DNA of 64,000 bases from an uncultured Rhodospirillaceae bacterium (GTDB taxonomy: Bacteria; Pseudomonadota; Alphaproteobacteria; MPNO01; UBA830). Below the pieces are notes generated by a model. That model worked only from the letters and a program-made list of their open reading frames with translations. It was not told the DNA's origin and searched no databases. Positions 2,480 to 55,587 of the stretch are shown here, piece by piece. The stretch covers positions 4,124-68,123 of the forward strand of contig CAXBCP010000024.1 in the NCBI GenBank assembly GCA_963974055.1, written 5' to 3'. Numbering within the stretch: position 1 is the stretch's first letter; the number at the start of each line of letters is the position of its first letter. Both the position numbers and the translations under genes were made by a program.

Positions 2480-3730
2480 TTACCGGGGTTCTCCGCCGAA
2501 ATCGTCTCGCTCAGCAATCCGGGCGACCGCGTAGCCGAACACCAGCCCCCAGAACGCCGCCCCGATCCCGAATATCGATACCCCGGCCACGGTGATCATG
2601 AATGTCACCAGCGAACCGAGCGAAAACCTGCCGCCAAAACCGCTGACGAATGCAGATTGCAGCACGGGCACCATGGCCAGTCCGGCGAGGGTCGCGATAA
2701 AGGCCGCCGGCAGGGCAATGCCGAGTTGGACGGCGCTGGGCGCGAACAGCCCGAAAGCCAGGATAAACAGTCCGAACCACATACCGCCGACATAGCGCCA
2801 TTCCTTCGCGCCCGACACGTTGAGGATCGCGTTTGCCGGCGCGGTCACAACCGTCGGCACGCAGCCCAGTGCGCCGTAGACCAGAGTCCCGGTGCCGCAC
2901 AGCAGAGTTGCCATGTTTTCCGGCGGACGGTAGCCGGCGTTGCGGGCGATCGCGAAACCCTGGGTATTGTGAATGCCGACAACGGTGACCGTCAGCGGAA
3001 TGACAAGCTCGATAATTGCCGTCAGGTTGAAAACCGGACGGAAGATCAGGGGTTCCGCGGTGCGCAGGACCAGTTGACCATCCGGCACGAACGCCCCGGT
3101 CGCGACGATCGCCACCGTGCCTGTGACCAGTGCCGCAAGGACGGGCGGGAACCGCCGCTTCAATGTCGGCGTGGCAGACACCGCCAGATACCCGGCCGCC
3201 ATCGCGCCGGCAATCCAGGCATTGCTGTCGAACGCGCCGATCATGCGCAGCCCGTAGGGCAGGAACACACCCGCGACCATCGCCATCACGATCGGTTCGG
3301 GCAACGCGGCCGTCACCCGCCGGATCAGCCCGGTCAGGGCAAGCACCAGGATAAGAGCGCCGGTGACGATATAGGCGCCGACCAGTTCCGGCATGGAAAA
3401 GTGCATCAATGCCGGGCCCACGATCACGACGCCCGGCATGCTGTAACCGATAGTCAGCGGCTGGCGGTACAGATAACAGACGCCGATCGACAATACGCCG
3501 CTGAGTCCGTAGGCGGTGAAAAGCCAGGCCGCGATGACGTCATTCGGCAGCGAGGCGGCGGTGCCGACCGCGAGAATCATGGCCCCCGGCCCGGTCGCCG
3601 CAAACAGGAAAGCACTGAAACCGTTGACGAGATTGTGGCCAAAGGCATGACGCAGCATATCGCGCAGGCCCGGCAGCGGCCGGACAACCGGCTCGATCGC
3701 CGCCGTCACCGCGGTTTTATGATCCGTCAT
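2480..3730 (-). CDS. BenE-family benzoate/H+ symporter-like transporter
   Basis: Polytopic membrane protein with YRQPLTIGYSMPG and the C-terminal GIGAAFWGLVFG typical of BenE. Start placed at MTDHK (ATG 3730). Confidence 0.85.
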   Translation of the reverse strand: MTDHKTAVTAAIEPVVRPLPGLRDMLRHAFGHNLVNGFSAFLFAATGPGAMILAVGTAASLPNDVIAAWLFTAYGLSGVLSIGVCYLYRQPLTIGYSMPGVVIVGPALMHFSMPELVGAYIVTGALILVLALTGLIRRVTAALPEPIVMAMVAGVFLPYGLRMIGAFDSNAWIAGAMAAGYLAVSATPTLKRRFPPVLAALVTGTVAIVATGAFVPDGQLVLRTAEPLIFRPVFNLTAIIELVIPLTVTVVGIHNTQGFAIARNAGYRPPENMATLLCGTGTLVYGALGCVPTVVTAPANAILNVSGAKEWRYVGGMWFGLFILAFGLFAPSAVQLGIALPAAFIATLAGLAMVPVLQSAFVSGFGGRFSLGSLVTFMITVAGVSIFGIGAAFWGLVFGYAVARIAERDDFGGEPR

Positions 3731-3977
3731 CGCGTATGCGCCCCCTTCCCGCCGCTGATAGCAGATTCGGCGAATTCGGCAAAGCCGCAGGAATGCATAT
3801 GTGGCCAACGCAAGCGGGCGATTGCGGAAAGGCACCGCGGGATTCGCCGGGAACCGATGGGGACGGCCTGCGGGACGGTACCGTCAACATCCCGTTAACC
3901 GTGAATTTTCATCGTTGCTCAACCCTGTCGGTGTAAACAGAAGGTGAGAGTTTCCAAAGCCATGAAGGCGACAGGAC

Positions 3978-7043: not shown

Positions 7044-7895
7044 TCAGGCGCCTGGCGCATCCGCCGGCACGTTGTCGATCAGCCGGGTCTTTCCGATCCA
7101 TGCGGCGGCAAAAACCCGGAGGCCCGGGCGGTAGCTTTCGGCCGGCGCCAGGGTCGCAGCGTCGCGAATATCGAAATAATCGACACGGTCGAACCCCGAT
7201 TCGAGCAGGGCGCGACGGCCCCATTCGCACTGGGCGGCGATATCGATATCCGGATGCAGCCGGTCGGCGACCGCCGACAGCGTCCCGAACAAACGCGCCG
7301 CGACGGACACCTGCGCCTCGGTCAGATAGTTGTTGCGCGACGACAGGGCGAGCCCGGTGGCCGCGCGGACGATGGGCACGCCGATGATGCGGATGCCGAG
7401 ACCGAGCTGCTCGGTCATCTTTTCGATCACCTTGAGCTGCTGATAATCCTTTTCCCCGAAATAGGCGACATAGGGCTGACAGTGTTCGAACAGTTTAGAG
7501 ACCACGGTGGTCACGCCGTCGAAATGGCCAGGCCGCGCAGCGCCGCACATGCCCTCGGTAACGCCGTCGACGGTCACGGTGATTTCAAATCCGTCAGGGT
7601 ACATTTCATCGACGCCGGGCGCATAGACGATATCCACGCCGTGTTTTTCGAAGAGCGCCAGATCCTGCGCCTCGTCGCGGGGGTAGGAGCTAAAATCCTC
7701 GCCCTCGCCGAACTGGGTCGGGTTTACGAACAGGCTTGCGATCACCAGCCGGCAATCGCGCCGCGCGCGGTTTACCAGCGTCAGGTGACCGGCATGCAGG
7801 GATCCCATGGTGGGAACGAGACCGATGATCGCCCCCTCTTCGCGATAGGGGGCCGTTGCCGCACGCAGTTCCGCGGCGGTGCGCAGGACGATCAT
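7044..7895 (-). CDS. panC: Pantoate--beta-alanine ligase
   Basis: VPTMGSLHAGH, FVNPTQF, RPGHFDGV, FGEKDYQQ, GLALSSRN, RLIDN. Alternative GTG start at 7922. Confidence 0.97.
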   Translation of the reverse strand: MIVLRTAAELRAATAPYREEGAIIGLVPTMGSLHAGHLTLVNRARRDCRLVIASLFVNPTQFGEGEDFSSYPRDEAQDLALFEKHGVDIVYAPGVDEMYPDGFEITVTVDGVTEGMCGAARPGHFDGVTTVVSKLFEHCQPYVAYFGEKDYQQLKVIEKMTEQLGLGIRIIGVPIVRAATGLALSSRNNYLTEAQVSVAARLFGTLSAVADRLHPDIDIAAQCEWGRRALLESGFDRVDYFDIRDAATLAPAESYRPGLRVFAAAWIGKTRLIDNVPADAPGA

Positions 7896-7973
7896 GGGCG
7901 CGTGCTCGATTTCTGCCGACACGGTTTTGTCTGGCTTACGAACGTTGGAGATGGGACATGCCGGGCGCTGAAT

Positions 7974-8828
7974 TCACGGTTTGAGGTGACGTACCTCTGC
8001 GCCGTCCGTCTTGGGCGCGCCGAAGCAGTATTCGGCAGACGGGAACCGGCGGGCGCGGACGTCTTCGGCATAGGCCGCCGCGGCCTTGCCGAGCTCGGCG
8101 CCCAGTTCGGCATACCGTTTGACGAATTTGGGGGTGAAATCGCTGAACATTCCGACAAGGTCTTCGGTCACCAGAACCTGTCCGTCGCAGTCGGCGGACG
8201 CGCCGATGCCGATCGTCGGGACCGGGACGACCTGCGTGATTTCCCGCGCCACCGGCTCCATAACGCCTTCGACCACCATCGAGAACGCGCCGGCATCGGC
8301 GACTGCGCGGGCATCGTCGATCACCTGGCGGGCGACGGCGGTGTCCTTGCCCTGGACCCGGAAGCCGCCATAGGTGTTCACCGATTGCGGCATCAATCCG
8401 ACATGCCCCATCACGGGAATCCCGCGTTTGGCGAGAAATTCGATGGTCGGCGCGAGCGCGACGCCGGCTTCCAGCTTGACCGCATCGCAACCGGTTTCCT
8501 GCATCACGCGGACGGCGTTGCGATAGGCCTGCTCCGCCGATTCCTGGTAGGAGCCGAACGGCATATCGACGACGACGCAGGCGCGCTGCGACCCGCGGAC
8601 CACGGCGGCGCCGTGGTTGATCATCATATCGAGCGTCACGGCCAGGGTCGTATCGAGGCCATAAACCACCATGCCGAGCGAATCGCCGACCAGAAGACAG
8701 TCGACATGTTCGTCGAGAAACTGCGCCATCGGCGCCGTATACGCGGTCAGAACCGCAATCGGTTCTCCGCCCTTGCGCGCCGCGAGTTCCGGCGCTGTAA
8801 TCCGTTTTATCCGGGTAGGGGTGCTCAT
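7974..8828 (-). CDS. panB: 3-methyl-2-oxobutanoate hydroxymethyltransferase
   Basis: [49 protein letters not shown]. Confidence 0.97.
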
Positions 8829-49742: not shown

Positions 49743-50888
49743 ATGGCCATACGATTTTCCTTCTATTATGCGGCGATATTTCTGGCGGTCGGCATTCACC
49801 TGCCGTTCTGGCCGGCATGGCTTAAATATCGCGGGCTCGATGCGGCGGAGATCAGCCTGATCCTGTCGGTCGGGGTTTGGATCCGTGCGTTCGCCAATCC
49901 GCTGATCGCCCATTTCGCCGACCGGTCCGGCGCCCACAGGAAAATCATTATGATCTCGGCCGGCGGCGGCATAATCACCTACGCGCTTTTCGGCATCGCC
50001 GACGGGTTCTGGGCCCTGTTCGCCGTCAACGTGCTGGCGAGCGCGATGTTCATGGCCCTGATCCCGCTGGGCGAAAACCTCGCGTCGCGCGCCTCTGTCG
50101 AACACGGATTCGATTACGGCCGGGTGCGTCTCTGGGGATCGATCACCTTTATCCTTGCGGCCTATGCGGGCGGATGGGTTGTGGAACGGTCGGGCGATGC
50201 CGCAATCCTGTGGATGATCGTCGCCGCCATGGTGGCTGCGTTCATCGCCGGGTTCGGCCTGCCGGAGCGCCCGGCCCGCGACCGGCCGCATGTCCGTTTT
50301 CCGGCCTTCGTGCTGCTGCGCCAGAAGCCCTTTCTGGTATTCATCGCCGCCGTCAGCCTGCTGCAGTCCAGCCACGCGGTGCTCTACGTATTCGGTACCA
50401 TTCACTGGCGCAACGCGGGCCTGCCGGACGACGTGATCGGCGCGTTGTGGGCCGAAGGGGTCATTGCCGAAATTATCCTGTTCGCGTTTTCCGGTGCGGT
50501 CGTCGCGCGGATCAGCCCGATACGGCTGATGTGGATCGCCGCCGCGGCCGGCATCGTGCGCTGGGCCATTCTCGCCAATACGACCGACATGGGCATGCTG
50601 TTCGCCACCCAGTGGCTGCACGGCCTGACCTTCGGCGCGGCGCACCTGGCCGCCATGCATCACCTGCTGCGCACGGTTCCCGAACACATGTCGGCATCGG
50701 CGCAGAGCCTGTATTCGGGTCTCGCCATCGGGCTGGTCATGGGGCTGGCAATGCTCGTCACCGGCGGGCTATACGAGCGGTTCGGCGGCGGCGCCTTTTA
50801 CGCGATGATCACGATGTCGGCGGCCGGCGGCATCACGGCAATTTACCTGATGCGGATGAACGGCCGCCTGGCGGACAAAACGCCCTAG
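49743..50888 (+). CDS. MFS transporter (HcaT-like)
   Basis: GIHLPFWPAWL, DYGRVRLWGS, LQSSHA, GVIAEI, QWLHGLTFG. Confidence 0.88.
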   Translation: MAIRFSFYYAAIFLAVGIHLPFWPAWLKYRGLDAAEISLILSVGVWIRAFANPLIAHFADRSGAHRKIIMISAGGGIITYALFGIADGFWALFAVNVLASAMFMALIPLGENLASRASVEHGFDYGRVRLWGSITFILAAYAGGWVVERSGDAAILWMIVAAMVAAFIAGFGLPERPARDRPHVRFPAFVLLRQKPFLVFIAAVSLLQSSHAVLYVFGTIHWRNAGLPDDVIGALWAEGVIAEIILFAFSGAVVARISPIRLMWIAAAAGIVRWAILANTTDMGMLFATQWLHGLTFGAAHLAAMHHLLRTVPEHMSASAQSLYSGLAIGLVMGLAMLVTGGLYERFGGGAFYAMITMSAAGGITAIYLMRMNGRLADKTP

Positions 50889-51073
50889 TGGCGCTGTTCT
50901 TCGTGGTCGAGGGACGTGCGGATCAGGAGGAAAACGAACGCGACGCCAAACACGAACATCGCGAGACCGCCGTAATAGCCGAGCCCTTCGCCGGCCCGGG
51001 CGGCAACAAACAGCCCGGCGATTCCCATCACGATTGAGAAGAATCCCAGAATCCAGTTTGAAAAATTTTCCAT
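50885..51073 (-). CDS. Small two-TM membrane protein
   Basis: 62 aa, two hydrophobic segments and a charged tail. Confidence 0.65.
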   Translation of the reverse strand: MENFSNWILGFFSIVMGIAGLFVAARAGEGLGYYGGLAMFVFGVAFVFLLIRTSLDHEEQRH

Positions 51074-51165: not shown

Positions 51166-52629
51166 CTATTCTGCCGCGTTGGCGGGCGATCCCGGGGCGG
51201 CGGACCGCCCGAACCGGGGGCGTTCGCGCTTTTCCTCGATCGGCAGGCTGAGGACGAATACCGTGCCGTCTTCGTCGCTCCGCCCGAGTTCCGCATCGCC
51301 GCCATGGCCGCGCATCAGGTCCCGCGCGATCGCGAGCCCCAGCCCCGTGCCGCCGACCCGCGCCGAGCCCTGGAACGGCTCGAACAGATGCTCTTTTACC
51401 CTGTTCGGCAGGCCCGGGCCGTTATCGGCGATCTCGATAAGGTTCGCATTCAGATCGGAATCGGCCGATGCCGCAACCGACACCTTGGTCGCGCCGGCCT
51501 GGAACGCGTTCAGCACCAGGTTCGAAATCACGCGGTAAAGCTGGTCGCGGTCGGCAAATATAGCAAAGTCGCGCGGCACCGAATTTTCGATCATGCCGGT
51601 CTGGCTTTCGCGAACAGATATTTCCGTGGCGATATCGCTGACCAGCGCGGCGAGATCGAAATGCGTCAGTTCGGGCGCCGGCGTGCCTTCATTGGCGAAG
51701 GTAAGCGTCCGGCTGCACAGCGCAGCGGCGCGATCGAGCGCGCCGAGCAGCGTCGGCGCAATCCGCCGCACGTTCGGGTCGTCGCTGTCGGAGACGTGGT
51801 CGGACACCAGCTGGGCCGTGGCGAGGATGTTCCGCAGATCGTGGTTGATCTTGGTGACCGCCGTGCCGAGGGCGGCAAGCCGCGCCCGCTGTTTCAGCGC
51901 ATCGCGCAGCCGGCTCTGCATCTGGGCGAGTTCGCGCTGGGCGCTGCCGATCTCGTCGCGGCGGCGGCCGGGCTGGATCAGCCGGCGCGCGTCGTCCGGA
52001 TTGCGGCGAAAATTGATCATGCTGTCCGTGATGCCGAGCATCGGGCGGACGAACATCCATTGCAGGCTGAGATATACAAGCGTCGCCGTCACCAGCGAAA
52101 TCACGATCGACAGCCACAGGATGCGCGCCGAATAATCGAGCATCATCTCGCGCAGGACCCATTCGTTGATGACCGTCTCGACCAGCACTTCGGGATTGGT
52201 GGGCGACGGCGCAACGACGCGGACCATCCGGCGCTCGGTCCGCCACATGACCGACAGCGCTTCGCCGATCAGTCCGAAGAATTCGTTGTCGCGCATGTCG
52301 AACGTCTCGTGAACCTTCGGCGGCATGTTGCGGCTGAGCATCAGAGCCTTGGATTTCGGCCGGCGCAGCACGATGCCGTACGACTTGGCGCTTTTCAGAA
52401 GCTCTTCGAGAAGCGCGCTGCTAACCCGGTTGTCGCTGGGGGCTTCGAGCGCCAGACTCGCCAGATGGGCGGCGGCGATGCGTTCCTGCATATAGGCGAC
52501 GCGGTAGCGGCCGATGGACGGCGCATAGATGAACACCTCGCTCAGCATCACGAAAAAGACCGTGAGCAACAGCAGCCGTGCGGACATTCCGGTCAGCAGC
52601 AACGGCAAACGTCTTGGCTTTTCATCCAT
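51166..52629 (-). CDS. HAMP-domain sensor histidine kinase (no response regulator in the window)
   Basis: Two TM segments, HAMP (RRDEIG), H-box INHDLRNIL, NLVLNA, DNGPG, LFEPF, GTGLGLAI. Confidence 0.92.
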   Translation of the reverse strand: MDEKPRRLPLLLTGMSARLLLLTVFFVMLSEVFIYAPSIGRYRVAYMQERIAAAHLASLALEAPSDNRVSSALLEELLKSAKSYGIVLRRPKSKALMLSRNMPPKVHETFDMRDNEFFGLIGEALSVMWRTERRMVRVVAPSPTNPEVLVETVINEWVLREMMLDYSARILWLSIVISLVTATLVYLSLQWMFVRPMLGITDSMINFRRNPDDARRLIQPGRRRDEIGSAQRELAQMQSRLRDALKQRARLAALGTAVTKINHDLRNILATAQLVSDHVSDSDDPNVRRIAPTLLGALDRAAALCSRTLTFANEGTPAPELTHFDLAALVSDIATEISVRESQTGMIENSVPRDFAIFADRDQLYRVISNLVLNAFQAGATKVSVAASADSDLNANLIEIADNGPGLPNRVKEHLFEPFQGSARVGGTGLGLAIARDLMRGHGGDAELGRSDEDGTVFVLSLPIEEKRERPRFGRSAAPGSPANAAE

Positions 52630-52685
52630 ATGCGGACTATAGCGAAGCGGCCGGGCGGTCTCTATGCCCCTGATACTTTTGATAC

Positions 52686-52719
52686 AAAAGAAAACGCCCT
52701 CCCCGGTGGGGAGGACGTT
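52686..52719 (-). terminator. Rho-independent terminator of the Cys-rich peptide gene
   Basis: Minus strand AACGTCCTCCCC-ACC-GGGGAGGGCGTT followed by TTCTTTT. Confidence 0.75.
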
Positions 52720-52752
52720 CGATCATACGCTCCACAGAACGAATGGACGTCT

Positions 52753-53013
52753 TTAGTTTTTCTTCGCAGCACAGGGGCTGCACGGGTTTTTCGCCGCGCA
52801 CGGGCTGCACGGGTTCTTTGCCGCACAGGGATTCTTCGCCGCGCACGGGCTGCACGGATTCTTCGCCGCACAGGGATTCTTCGCCGCGCACGGGCCGCAC
52901 GCCGCGATCTGGACGGGGGTGCCGGCGGAAATGCCGGCCGCGGCGGCGGGCAGCGCGGCGGTGCCGGCGGCGAGTGCAACAACGCTGAGGGTGGTAATCG
53001 TTTTCTTGATCAT
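52753..53013 (-). CDS. Secreted Cys-rich repeat peptide (NPCAAK/NPCSPC repeats)
   Basis: MIKKTITTLSVVALAAGTAALPAAAA signal peptide, then ...CGPCAAKNPCAAKNPCSPCAAKNPCAAKNPCSPCAAKNPCSPCAAKKN. GGGAGA RBS, own terminator, and DNA repeats that differ mostly at third codon positions. Confidence 0.85.
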   Translation of the reverse strand: MIKKTITTLSVVALAAGTAALPAAAAGISAGTPVQIAACGPCAAKNPCAAKNPCSPCAAKNPCAAKNPCSPCAAKNPCSPCAAKKN

Positions 53014-53177
53014 ATCTGTTCTCCCATTGACGATACGGAAACCTGGGACCGCGGAGGAATTCCGCTGTCCCAATGATTAGATGGGGATTCCACACATCAC
53101 ACAACGCACACTATGCTCACCGTCTCTCAACTAGTTGTGAGCGCAGGGTTTTCGCGGGCGGCGCAGGGTCCCGGCCG

Positions 53178-54602
53178 TCAACCGAGGCGCAGCAGAAACC
53201 TGACGATTTTTTTCGTCTTCTCGCTGAACAGCTTCGGCGTGTAATAGCTGCCGGCGGCGCGCTTGTTGACCTCGCCCAGGGTCGGATAGGGAATGATGAG
53301 CCCCGCGACGGCGCCGATCTTCATTTTCTTCTGGATCGGCAGAATCCAGCTTTGCAGCAATTCGCCCGCATGCGGCCCGACGATCGACGCCCCGACGATA
53401 ACGCCCTTGGCGGTCGTGACGATCTTGGCGAGCCCGTCGGTATCGCGCTCCGCCTGCGCCCGGTCGTTCTCGGCGAAGGGATGGCGAAGGATGCGGATAT
53501 CGCCGTATTTTTCCCGCGCCTGGGTCTCGGTCATGCCCACATGGGCAAGCTCGGGATCGGTATAGGTGACCCATGGCAGGGCCGAATAGTCGACCCTGGC
53601 CGGCAGGCGGAACAGGATGTTCCGCAGGACGATCCCGGCGTGATAGCCGGCGACATGCGTGAACTGAAAGCCGCCCGCCGCATCGCCGATGGCGTACACT
53701 TTCCTGTTGGATGTCCGCAGACGCGCATCCACCGTGACCCCGCGCTTGTCGTATTCTATTCCCGCCGCTTCGAGGTCGAGCCCGTCGAGATTGGGCACCC
53801 GCCCCGCCGATACAAGCAGGTCGGACCCTTCGATGCGTTCTTCCCTGCCGTCGTCCTTGATGATGACGGCAATTCCGCTGTCGGTTCGTTCGGCCCGGAC
53901 GACCTTGATGCCTTCACGCATCGCGATCCCTTCGGACAGCATCCGGTTTTTCACGATCTCCGTCAGTTCCGGGTCGTCCTTGCCGAGCACGCTGAACATC
54001 TCGAGGATCGTCACCCTGCAGCCGAGCCGCCGGTGCGCCTGGGCGAGCTCGCTGCCGATCGGCCCGCCGCCGAGAACGATCAGATGATCGGGCGCGGATT
54101 TTTTATCGAACACCGTTTCGTTGGTCAGGTAGGGCACGTCTTCCAGCCCGGGGACCGGCGGCACGCCGGCGCGGGAGCCGGTGGAGATAACGACGCGCTT
54201 GACGGTGATGACGGTGTCGCCGGCCTGCACCCGGTTGGGGCCGACGAACTTGCCGTGCTCCTGGATAACCCGCACGCCGAGCCCTTCGAAGCGCTCGACG
54301 GAATCGTGCGGCGCGATGGCGCCGATGACGCCGTGAACGTGATCGTGGACTTTTTCGAAATCGATCGCCGGTTCCGCAGCGGCGATCCCGAACCGGCCGG
54401 CCCTGCGCACGGCGTGGGCCGCATGGGCCGCCGCGATCATCGCCTTCGACGGAACGCAGCCGTAGTTCAGGCAATCGCCGCCCATCTTCGCCTTTTCGAG
54501 CAGCACCACCTCGGCGCCCATCTGCGACGCGCCGGCGGCGACGGACAAACCCCCGGAGCCGCCGCCGATGACAACGATATCAGCGGTAATTTCATTCGAC
54601 AT
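53178..54602 (-). CDS. Class I pyridine nucleotide-disulfide oxidoreductase (mercuric reductase/LpdA-like)
   Basis: VIGGGSGG, GGDCLNYGCVPSK, LGGGPIG, FTHVAGY, IIPYPTLGE. No C-terminal Cys-Cys and no His-Glu pair. Confidence 0.92.
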   Translation of the reverse strand: MSNEITADIVVIGGGSGGLSVAAGASQMGAEVVLLEKAKMGGDCLNYGCVPSKAMIAAAHAAHAVRRAGRFGIAAAEPAIDFEKVHDHVHGVIGAIAPHDSVERFEGLGVRVIQEHGKFVGPNRVQAGDTVITVKRVVISTGSRAGVPPVPGLEDVPYLTNETVFDKKSAPDHLIVLGGGPIGSELAQAHRRLGCRVTILEMFSVLGKDDPELTEIVKNRMLSEGIAMREGIKVVRAERTDSGIAVIIKDDGREERIEGSDLLVSAGRVPNLDGLDLEAAGIEYDKRGVTVDARLRTSNRKVYAIGDAAGGFQFTHVAGYHAGIVLRNILFRLPARVDYSALPWVTYTDPELAHVGMTETQAREKYGDIRILRHPFAENDRAQAERDTDGLAKIVTTAKGVIVGASIVGPHAGELLQSWILPIQKKMKIGAVAGLIIPYPTLGEVNKRAAGSYYTPKLFSEKTKKIVRFLLRLG

Positions 54603-54619
54603 TTTCGACACCTTAGTAT

Positions 54620-55396
54620 TCAGGCGGACGGAACGGCTTTCCGCGCTTTGATCTTTTTATAGACGATCGGTATGCAGGCAAGAACCGCGAGGCCGATGAT
54701 CGGGGCCAGGAAACGCGGCGCGAAGATGATCCCGATATTCAGATCGCCCCCGGCGTCGAGCACCGCACCGGCGCCGTCTCCCACGAGCGAATAAACGAAC
54801 GCGCCGGGGACGATGCCGAGAAACGTGCCGATCAGATAGGTGCGCAGGCTGACGCCCAGGAAGGCCGGGACCAGATTGACCAGCCAGAACGGAAACAGCG
54901 GCACCAGACGCAGGATCAGCAGGTAGCTCAGCGCGTTTTCGCGAAAACCCGCTTCCATGCGTTTGATCGCCGGGCCGGCCTTGGCGCGCAGGACGTCGCC
55001 GAGCGCGCATTTCGCCGCGAGGAATACGCCGACGGCGCCGGTCGTCGCACCGATAACGACATACACCGTGCCGAGATAGGGTCCGAACATGAACCCGCCG
55101 GCGATGGTGATAAACACCGCCCCGGGGATGGAGAACGCGACCGCGAGGGCATAAACCGCAATGAATACGATGGCGGACATCGCACCGTAATTCTCGACCC
55201 AGGACTGGAGCACTTCCCGGTGGGTCTTGAGCGCGCCGAGGGAAACATACTGATTGAGATCGAAGTAAAAAAACGCCGCCAGACCCGCGACCAGCACGGT
55301 CAGGGGCAGGACCCGCCCGAGCGAAAAGGCGGATTTTCTGCCGCCCTGCCCGGTCCCCGGTTGGTTTGCGGAGTCTGCCTGTGTCGCTTTGTCCAT
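54620..55396 (-). CDS. TVP38/TMEM64 (DedA/SNARE-associated) membrane protein
   Basis: SIPGAVFITIAGGFMFG, GATTGA, YLLILRLVPLFPFWLVNL, TFLGIVPG. Alternative start at 55411. Confidence 0.92.
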   Translation of the reverse strand: MDKATQADSANQPGTGQGGRKSAFSLGRVLPLTVLVAGLAAFFYFDLNQYVSLGALKTHREVLQSWVENYGAMSAIVFIAVYALAVAFSIPGAVFITIAGGFMFGPYLGTVYVVIGATTGAVGVFLAAKCALGDVLRAKAGPAIKRMEAGFRENALSYLLILRLVPLFPFWLVNLVPAFLGVSLRTYLIGTFLGIVPGAFVYSLVGDGAGAVLDAGGDLNIGIIFAPRFLAPIIGLAVLACIPIVYKKIKARKAVPSA

Positions 55397-55587
55397 CGCA
55401 GCGCCTTTCATGGCTGTTGTCTTATGCCGTTTGGCGGATGTGGCGGGTTTCCCGGACAGAATACCATACAAAACTTCCGCGTTTTTCCGTCCGGCCGCGC
55501 CCAGAGGCCCGTTCCGGTCCCGGGATATCTGGATTTCCGCCGTTCCCAAGGCCAATCAACACCCTCTCAACAAAGCGTGAAGTCCCC

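Follow-up and report, generated by a model that had tools for sequence, protein, structure and literature searches.

A stretch of 64,000 nucleotides from an uncultured Rhodospirillaceae bacterium (assembly GCA_963974055.1, contig CAXBCP010000024.1, positions 4,124 to 68,123; called the window here) encodes at 52753-53013, on the minus strand, a small peptide in which a putative Sec-type signal is followed by a string of Asn-Pro-Cys (NPC) units. To judge from sequence, this NPC-repeat peptide is the stand-alone form of a widespread, undescribed, periplasmic module, and we found no database family and no paper that names it. An earlier note on this DNA had described the peptide itself; new beyond that note are the use of the repeat as a module fused to haem proteins, the recurrence of DUF6969 as a partner and the frequency of YeeE-type transporters among the neighbours. 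The gene and its product comprise the following features.

52753..53013, minus strand: coding sequence of the NPC-repeat peptide P0001, including the stop codon, 86 amino acids (aa), called from homologues, from non-synonymous against synonymous differences (pN/pS) and from the GC content of third codon positions (GC3)
52933..53013, minus strand: Sec-type signal, residues 1-27 (MIKKT, hydrophobic core, PAAAAG), by inspection
52900..52932, minus strand: linker, residues 28-38, ending in V-Q-[ILV]-A-A, which stands family-wide directly before the first Cys (alignment A1)
52756..52899, minus strand: Cys-repeat core, residues 39-86, made of CGPC, five AAKNPC units, three SPC units and an AAKKN tail

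The translation of 52753-53013 on the minus strand reads MIKKTITTLSVVALAAGTAALPAAAAGISAGTPVQIAACGPCAAKNPCAAKNPCSPCAAKNPCAAKNPCSPCAAKNPCSPCAAKKN, and it bears out the description given before, namely an 86-aa peptide with a Sec-type signal and ten Cys at intervals of 3 or 6 residues, nine of these Cys being preceded by Pro. The signal has the classical layout of n-, h- and c-regions, with KK at the start, a hydrophobic stretch of 16 residues and then P-AAAA-G; with the signal called by inspection and the cleavage site presumed, export of the 86-aa peptide is probably of the Sec type. The Cys stand at positions 39, 42, 48, 54, 57, 63, 69, 72, 78 and 81 (spacings 3, 6, 6, 3, 6, 6, 3, 6, 3), and only C39 lacks a preceding Pro. 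With ten Cys in 48 residues, the core otherwise consists mainly of Ala, Lys, Asn, Pro and Ser and holds no aromatic residue. AlphaFold2, run with the family alignment, gives the peptide a mean predicted local distance difference test (pLDDT) score of 45.3, that is, it is predicted to be disordered, so the mature peptide is probably intrinsically disordered. Neither Pfam nor NCBIfam matched any family to the 86-aa peptide, and this includes metallothioneins, PF00403 (HMA) and DUF2282; a sequence search of the PDB with it gave nothing meaningful, and the ESM Atlas returned unnamed clusters only. Two structural readings were tried and rejected: a lipoprotein built on 'IAAC', since this Cys lies 17 residues past the hydrophobic core and is absent from several homologues, and a solenoid or beta-helix, since the repeat period varies within the family (3, 5, 6, 9).

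The peptide gene is real and under purifying selection, as the earlier note had supposed from repeats that differ at synonymous sites. At the DNA level a tandem repeat with a period of 45 and 95% matches covers 52790-52901. All five AAKNPC and all three SPC units are the same in protein, and their DNA differs solely at third positions, with the synonymous changes CCC/CCG, TGT/TGC, AAT/AAC, AAG/AAA and GCG/GCA. The GC content at codon positions 1, 2 and 3 of the peptide frame is 0.53, 0.68 and 0.80, and in six ungapped orthologues, compared over the first 42 codons, pS is 0.37-0.48 versus a pN of 0.03-0.10; two further orthologues, one of them shifted by an indel, were left out of this set. The repeat is more than a product of chance because protein-level homologues occur in genomes of 46-55% GC with unrelated DNA. 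Among close relatives the number of repeats varies freely, giving peptides of 56 to 87 aa, as would be expected of a capacity module and not of a fold.

We define the NPC-repeat family here by a signal, a V-Q-[ILV]-A-type junction and at least three [NSG]-P-C units which lie 0-4 small or basic residues apart. The window gene fits this definition, and the profile of alignment A1 scores it at E = 5.6e-30. In a search of 5.8 billion proteins we found 406 short homologues (47-151 aa, E <= 0.01) and 398 longer ones (152-2000 aa, E <= 0.001), while a profile search of 1.84 billion representatives at 50% identity gave 495 matches at E <= 0.001 and 116 at E <= 1e-10. The peptide does belong to a distinct family, as had been suspected, given its 406 short homologues and the lack of a model for it in Pfam and NCBIfam. 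Where homologues carry a name at all it is 'hypothetical', except for 'LysM repeat protein' or 'c-type cytochrome' on some of the long forms. A literature search found nothing on the repeat motif, on DUF6969, on a periplasmic or secreted metallothionein of such a kind or on P460 proteins with Cys-rich repeats.

In 196 short members Ala makes up 21%, Cys 20.5%, Pro 16%, Asn 15% and Lys 14% of the residues (87% of the core is A+C+P+N+K), and only 30 of them contain any aromatic residue. They have a median of 11 Cys (range 4-18), which follow each other after 3 residues 988 times and after 6 residues 519 times; the residue before Cys is Pro in 1502 cases and the next commonest residue in 232. By a crude rule the N-terminus of 179 of the 196 looks like a signal. 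For two family members a precomputed match to PF02389 is on record, and a distant member (in locus L165, described below) has a canonical lipobox. According to public records, carriers are found in Rhodospirillales, Sneathiellales, Kiloniellales, Burkholderiales, Rhodocyclaceae, Gallionella and Pseudomonas/Stutzerimonas, and further in Marinobacter, Hahella, Psychromonas, Zobellella, Rokubacteria, Gemmatimonadota and Myxococcota. The NPCAAK repeats of gamma- and betaproteobacteria have single, evenly spaced Cys instead of CxxC pairs. In a sample of the phylum 32 of 371 genomes gave NPC matches, 26 of them from one family of bacteria with small genomes of 46-55% GC; all eight loci fetched from it (L175-L182) encode His/Met-rich repeats of the type MNPCNPC[AS]MKKH, and in six of the eight the short peptide is, by eye, paired with a TsdA-like cytochrome. 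A tblastn search of plasmids with the peptide gave no match, probably owing to the low-complexity filter.

The same repeat is found on haem proteins. Our domain tally of the long forms covers 120 listed among the 398 longer homologues, and in 95 of these 120 the NPC repeat flanks P460-like or SoxA/TsdA-type haem domains. Cytochrome_P460 (PF16694) is present in 69 of the 120, together with LysM in 18 and with PF01471 in one; the SoxA/TsdA cytochrome domain PF21342 is present in 26, ten of which also have PF03150; the remaining ones have LysM only (7), PF02389 only (1) or no domain (17). Our own scans place P460 at 25.7-28.2 bits, around the cut-off of 27, in four of five P460-type proteins, and find PF21342 in two proteins and DM13 in one. 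The V-Q-[ILV]-A-A motif also precedes the repeats in the long fusion proteins. The TsdA type carries repeats on both sides of the haem domain, and the P460 type has two repeat blocks with a conserved C-[VEM]-[VI]-P-R-[LI] segment between them. In total, 46 of 106 non-duplicate loci encode a short peptide only, 32 a haem fusion only and 25 both, which are then usually adjacent.

Some side observations concern these fusions. The C-[VEM]-[VI]-P-R-[LI] segment was seen in L015, L017, L018, L035, L036, L041, L055, L058 and L060, and a secreted FGE-sulfatase-like gene often lies upstream of NPC-P460 fusions (L084, L101, L111, L157). FGE enzymes oxidise a CxPxR motif, which the segment resembles without being identical to it. 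More fusion partners occur in L053 (G046:C1) and L136 (6525-7424 and 7503-8360), among others the DM13 'electron transfer' domain; the same loci show a beta-rich middle domain without assigned family between NPCAK pentapeptide repeats, and a CxxCH cytochrome with a C-terminal repeat tail.

DUF6969 is the recurrent partner of the module. In a sample of the class the NPC profile matches 52 of 401 genomes, DUF6969 90 and MNIO 150. DUF6969 is present in 50 of the 52 NPC carriers versus 40 of the 349 non-carriers (leaving aside genome G279, which is flagged as unpublished and on which no other claim depends: DUF6969 in 89 of 400 genomes and 39 of 348 non-carriers), counts which are descriptive because related genomes are not independent. 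The two carriers without DUF6969 are G121, which is 79% complete, and G390. Some of the 'non-carriers' probably hold diverged peptides, for L174 and L184, the latter from Sinorhizobium meliloti, have a secreted Cys-repeat open reading frame (ORF) beside DUF6969 that the profile missed. NPC repeats can exist without DUF6969, because in the phylum sample only 4 of the 32 carriers have it; of the 28 without it 26 belong to the one family mentioned above, in which none of the eight stretches fetched contains DUF6969. It was found in 52 of the 106 loci, within 300 bp of an NPC gene in 40 of the 52 and within 1 kb in 46, and 42 of these 46 genes lie on the same strand. Homologues on plasmid or chromid records of Azospirillum, Sinorhizobium and Burkholderia are all annotated as hypothetical.

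The genome studied here has one DUF6969 protein (PF22308, 285 bits; G000:C3:94000-94611, in L162 at 7854-8666 on the plus strand), unlinked to the peptide gene and neighboured by genes for a cytochrome c2-like protein, a universal stress protein and a TAXI-TRAP transporter. In 36 DUF6969 sequences H85, D90, D93, Q99, Y102, H103, H105, R110, E113, H116, H118, R122 and H150 are invariant (numbered as in the protein of this genome); with six His, besides Asp and Glu, among these residues and without a signal peptide, DUF6969 is, to judge from its sequence, a His-rich cytoplasmic protein. AlphaFold2 models it with confidence (pLDDT 86.7, predicted template modelling score 0.85). By sequence it has no relative in the PDB, the one match, at E = 0.054, being an unrelated ligase; Foldseek gave no match at E <= 0.001 and VIA reached a best Z of 3.4, and a fold match may still exist. 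DUF6969 may represent a new metal-binding fold. A predicted complex of DUF6969 and the peptide scored 0.01 versus a mark of 0.32, which counts neither for nor against binding.

To describe the neighbourhoods, ORFs around the 106 non-duplicate loci (flanks of about 8 kb) were clustered and then counted by tblastn, with the following result.

DUF6969 (PF22308): 52 of 106 loci
YeeE/YedE (PF04143), 'sulphur transport': 29 of 106 loci
DUF302: 21 of 106 loci
Secreted protein of about 163 aa, no Pfam family: 20 of 106 loci
DUF3179: 15 of 106 loci
FGE-sulfatase-like protein: 9 of 106 loci
Cytochrome c2-like protein: 9 of 106 loci
MNIO/DUF2063/DoxX/DUF2282: 1 of 106 loci

A typical order is YeeE, the secreted 163-aa protein, the FGE-like protein, an NPC-haem protein, the NPC peptide and DUF6969, sometimes followed by DUF302 and DUF3179. 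In Zobellella a CusR-like regulator lies directly upstream of the cluster (TIGR01387, 347 bits versus a cut-off of 279; 70% identity to E. coli CusR) with a heavy-metal kinase nearby (TIGR01386, 500 versus 293), and MerR-family regulators of the metal type were found in four loci, one a true MerR and three relatives. Locus L165 (G359:C8:11500-19500) contains a complete bufferin cluster of DoxX, DUF2063, MNIO and a DUF2282 precursor, flanked by an NPC-like lipobox peptide (3654-3875, minus strand) and by an operon of an extracytoplasmic function (ECF) sigma factor, NrsF, DUF6969 and HMA. On pSymB of S. meliloti (CP140948.1) the order is sulfurtransferase, YeeE/YedE, secreted Cys peptide and DUF6969-like gene; this peptide (L184, 5625-5999, plus strand) has 124 aa, APCAAG-type Cys repeats and a Pro-rich tail, and its ORF is missing from the gene table shown, which is incomplete for plasmid records. 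As a side observation, three gammaproteobacterial loci (L152, 6319-7323, and two others) encode a radical SAM protein with DUF3641 at a distance of a few kb from the NPC-DUF6969 pair, a number too small to call it a partner.

In the window the peptide gene, the single NPC gene of a 4.9-Mb genome that is 96.7% complete, has the following neighbours and signals.

53178..54611, minus strand: FAD-dependent pyridine nucleotide-disulfide oxidoreductase (Pfam, NCBIfam), upstream neighbour, cytoplasmic, with CxxxxC
54620..55555, minus strand: VTT/DedA-like membrane protein (PF09335), start codon uncertain, paired with the oxidoreductase
51166..52629, minus strand: sensor histidine kinase with two transmembrane segments, HAMP, HisKA and HATPase, downstream neighbour, no adjacent response regulator
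50885..51073, minus strand: 62-aa membrane protein with two helices, downstream of the kinase, no Pfam family
53020..53025, minus strand: ribosome-binding site (RBS) GGGAGA, 6 nt before the ATG, from sequence
52682..52720, minus strand: hairpin like that of an intrinsic terminator plus T run, 13 pairs, 8 of them G-C, between the peptide and kinase genes
53026..53140, minus strand: 5' leader or promoter region with many invariant columns in an alignment of nine same-family genomes

The oxidoreductase is MerA/RclA-like, falls under both cut-offs (TIGR02053, 365 versus 454 bits) and lacks the C-terminal Cys pair. The order yidC, rnpA, VTT, oxidoreductase, peptide, kinase, 62-aa membrane protein is the same in each of the 12 relatives examined, some genes being cut by contig ends and the kinase of G003 being in pieces. 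The oxidoreductase adjoins the peptide in 12 of 12 and the VTT gene is found in 11, the contig of the twelfth ending short of it; the 62-aa membrane protein gives tblastn matches in 10 (55-82% identity). In L032 (G003:C7, 2752-4171) we observed that the kinase orthologue, which stands beside the shortest variant of the peptide (57 aa), is matched in four pieces that lie in different frames, which reflects either decay of the gene or a mistake in the assembly. Outside this circle, among 20 loci that come from other families of the class, 7 keep the same order and in 9 the kinase follows the peptide. Among the 106 loci an orthologue of the oxidoreductase occurs in 19 and one of the kinase (at least 40% identity) directly downstream of the peptide in 20; in two of these 20, L070 and L077, the stretch fetched does not contain the oxidoreductase. 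The oxidoreductase/VTT pair also lies near NPC clusters in Hyphomicrobium, Sedimenticolaceae and Marinobacter, in the last as a single VTT::oxidoreductase fusion. Same-family genomes without the peptide retain the pair, one of them having also lost most of the kinase, and in G017 the 1-kb gap between oxidoreductase and kinase holds no recognisable gene. The flavoprotein is a possible partner of the peptide, and the kinase a possible regulator of its gene.

An RBS and a terminator of its own had been claimed for the gene, and both are there: GGGAGA stands 6 nt before the ATG, and the 13-pair hairpin with its T run starts 33 nt past the stop codon. In nine aligned orthologous upstream regions five of the six RBS positions are invariant and the sixth varies in one genome. 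The terminator scan alone is weak, because it finds 2 such sites in the region versus 1.2 expected, and it is the position of the hairpin that counts. The 165 bp upstream of the gene are far better conserved in the nine same-family genomes than its synonymous sites. They contain a hairpin at 53045-53071 (GGGAC..GCGG/CCGC..GTCCC), an invariant block GAATCCCCATCTAAT at 53076-53091 and a perfect 10-bp palindrome CAACTAGTTG at 53128-53137, and a second, possible helix would sequester the RBS. A 15-mer of the leader is found in same-family relatives only. The predicted helices show no covariation in the nine-genome alignment and Rfam gave no family at threshold for the leader, only a sub-threshold ctRNA match over the terminator; the conserved region may accordingly be either an RNA leader or an operator.

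As to function, we tentatively favour, while giving it somewhat less than an even chance, that the peptide is an unstructured periplasmic poly-thiol that binds or buffers soft metals in a metallothionein-like way and is not modified by an MNIO enzyme. The string of Asn-Pro-Cys units would be exported via Sec as a disordered peptide, and its thiolates would bind or buffer soft metal ions multivalently in the periplasm, ions of the Cu(I) type being the first guess. Elsewhere the module would act fused to c-type haem domains and co-transcribed with DUF6969, often with a YeeE-type transporter, and here it would act from a gene placed between the MerA/RclA-like flavoprotein with its VTT membrane partner and the sensor kinase. 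It is the ligand, a soft metal, that we infer here above all else. The composition, the predicted disorder and the His/Met-rich lineage are consistent with it, His and Met being typical periplasmic metal ligands, and so are the CusR-like regulator and kinase of Zobellella, the MerR-type regulators in four loci, the NPC-like lipoprotein and DUF6969 inside the bufferin cluster of G359, and the recurrence of the MerA/RclA-like flavoprotein (19/106); RclA is a Cu(II) reductase.

Several points weigh against this reading. Canonical copper genes are rare in the flanks of about 8 kb (of 106 loci, CopA-like in 1, CueO-like in 1, CusA-like in 2, CusF in 0), and metal genes in general may be no more frequent near these loci than by chance. 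The commonest neighbours point elsewhere (of 106 loci, 29 have YeeE/YedE, 21 have DUF302 and 57 have haem fusions of the SoxA/TsdA type or P460-like), and a sulfurtransferase and YeeE flank the related peptide-DUF6969 pair in S. meliloti; YeeE, the TsdA-like haem neighbours and this sulfurtransferase point to sulfur chemistry instead. The window's own peptide contains neither His nor Met, and Cys pairs in the periplasm may simply undergo oxidation to disulfides. The thiol-rich buffer of metal(loid)s or oxidants proposed in the earlier note stays plausible from composition and scattered context: the amino acid content, the His/Met variants and the metal regulators of a few loci agree with it, but the rarity of copper genes nearby does not.

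The sulfur chemistry can be put as a reading of its own, which we regard as a serious but rather unlikely alternative. The NPC Cys would bear sulfane sulfur or thiosulfonate in the periplasm, like the swinging arm of SoxY, to be loaded and unloaded by the fused His/Cys-haem domains of SoxA/TsdA or P460-like type, and a YeeE-type transporter would import the sulfur to the cytoplasm, the site of DUF6969. Besides YeeE/YedE in 29 of the 106 loci, the repeats on both sides of PF21342 in 26 of the 120 listed longer homologues and the gene order on pSymB argue for this, as do the single, evenly spaced Cys of the gamma- and betaproteobacterial NPCAAK repeats, which form no CxxC pairs. However, alongside the peptide and DUF6969 this genome shows no YeeE over the cut-off, no PF21342 and no P460 match, the control of the P460 search being silent too. 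P460-like fusions, for which we know of no sulfur role, outnumber TsdA-like ones among the 120 listed (69 versus 26), the His/Met enrichment of one lineage has no obvious role in sulfur carriage, and the peptide lacks the features of SoxY, with no GGCGG end and no Ig-like fold.

More doubtful is a pathway in the manner of RiPPs (peptides made on the ribosome and modified after translation), in which DUF6969, as a metalloenzyme of the cytoplasm, would modify NPC proteins at their Cys or at residues next to them before Sec export, as MNIO enzymes do with bufferins. This would be compatible with metal binding as the end function, and its probability may overlap with those of the other readings. 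It would account for the company that DUF6969 keeps, that is, its presence in 50/52 carriers versus 40/349 non-carriers of the class sample and its place in 52/106 loci, within 300 bp in 40/52 and on the same strand in 42/46, a pairing kept even with the strongly diverged peptide of S. meliloti; the six invariant His with Asp and Glu, the missing signal peptide and the confident model (pLDDT 86.7) without a sequence or fold match in the PDB speak for it too. Against it stand the 28 of 32 phylum-sample carriers without DUF6969 (26 of one family), the unlinked genes for peptide and DUF6969 in this genome and its relatives, the occurrence of the repeats as tails of haem proteins of 250-450 aa and the fact that no catalytic family can be assigned to DUF6969.

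Less likely again is a redox module, in which thiol-disulfide cycling of CxxC and Cx5C pairs would scavenge oxidants (HOCl, H2O2, NO) or relay electrons to the haem domains or a soluble cytochrome c. CxxC is the commonest spacing and the first motif here is CGPC; the fusion partners P460, SoxA/TsdA and DM13 are electron-transfer domains, a cytochrome c2-like gene adjoins DUF6969 in this and several other genomes, and a flavoprotein of the disulfide-reductase type is encoded upstream. That flavoprotein is cytoplasmic, however, and we know of no thiol relay by a VTT protein; many family members have no CxxC at all, and in the neighbour clusters inspected genes of the Dsb or CcdA type do not recur.

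That there is no functional product, only an ORF arisen by chance in GC-rich repeat DNA or an inert linker of low complexity released as a fragment, is very improbable: overlapping ORFs in other frames of the same repeat DNA, the unstable repeat number and the absence of the gene from some same-family genomes (in one of which the neighbouring kinase is truncated too) could suggest it, but pN lies far below pS, GC3 in the peptide frame is 0.80, RBS, terminator and leader are conserved, and homologues occur across several phyla in unrelated DNA. Finally, the MNIO (DUF692)-modified RiPP precursor of the bufferin or oxazolin kind which the earlier note had considered is close to refuted, although a Sec signal and a Cys-rich core are shared with those peptides (as described in PMC12452194) and in two loci (L126, L165) an MNIO cluster has an NPC-type gene in its vicinity, for the window holds no such enzyme, as already noticed, the search of the rest of this 96.7% complete genome gave no PF05114 while the Caulobacter control was detected, MNIO is found in 15/52 carriers versus 135/349 non-carriers and in 1/106 loci, the MNIO operon of L165 has its own DUF2282 precursor, and the peptide has no DUF2282 match.

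The oxidising periplasm has few Cys-rich proteins, and each of those known (bufferins, MerP, Csp1) has opened a field. An Asn-Pro-Cys repeat this simple, found by itself or as tails of c-type haem proteins in sequence clusters that number hundreds and stem from Alpha-, Beta- and Gammaproteobacteria as well as other phyla, points towards a thiol-based system of the bacterial cell envelope that has gone unstudied. Stutzerimonas stutzeri, Zobellella aerophila, Marinobacter, Psychromonas, Denitrobaculum and, probably, Sinorhizobium meliloti are carriers available in culture, so that experiments can answer what the NPC thiols bind. This would also open a first way to the function of the many cytochromes of the P460-like and single-domain TsdA-like kinds outside the nitrifiers and sulfur oxidisers.

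Among known systems, metallothioneins such as the bacterial SmtA/BmtA type, with their pattern of Cys with Lys and no aromatics, resemble the peptide in having about 20% Cys, CxxC motifs, Lys beside Cys, almost no aromatic residues and no predicted fold without ligand. In contrast to them the peptide is exported and not cytoplasmic, forms a regular tandem repeat and matches no Pfam metallothionein family. The gene order recalls MerP/MerT/MerA, in that the gene for a putative periplasmic binder with CxxC has beside it those for a membrane protein and a MerA-like flavoprotein; however, the peptide has no HMA fold (PF00403 is absent from it, though the same scan finds HMA in L165), the flavoprotein lacks the C-terminal Cys pair and stays below the MerA cut-off, and the membrane protein is VTT/DedA-like and not MerT. 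With SoxY and SoxAX/TsdA the fusions share the idea of a flexible arm that offers its Cys to a cytochrome domain of the SoxA/TsdA type (PF21342). SoxY bears a single Cys, in a GGCGG end, and has an Ig-like fold and SoxZ as a partner, whereas our peptide ends in AAKKN, without GGCGG and without a predicted fold, in a genome without PF21342. The small proline-rich proteins (cornifin/SPRR) are likewise tandem repeats rich in Pro, Cys and Lys, as the PF02389 match in two family members reflects, but they are eukaryotic and intracellular and this match is compositional only.

Closest in outline are the bufferins and oxazolins (BufA1/DUF2282, BufA2, EGKCG repeat proteins), which PMC12452194 describes as MNIO-modified periplasmic copper-binding RiPPs. 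Like the NPC peptides they have, according to PMC12452194, a Sec signal where a leader would stand, a core that is rich in Cys and sometimes repetitive, a length that varies and can reach hundreds of residues, and an adjacent gene for a dedicated partner in the cytoplasm. The NPC peptides differ from them in having no MNIO, DUF2063 or DoxX partner and no DUF2282 match, and instead the N-P-C motif, DUF6969 as partner and the haem fusions. If, as we consider unlikely, the NPC peptides and the NPC tails of haem proteins were substrates of DUF6969, their Cys altered before Sec export to give products for metal or sulfur handling with P460- and TsdA-like cytochromes, this would be a second, MNIO-independent route to exported modified Cys-peptides, parallel to that of the bufferins.

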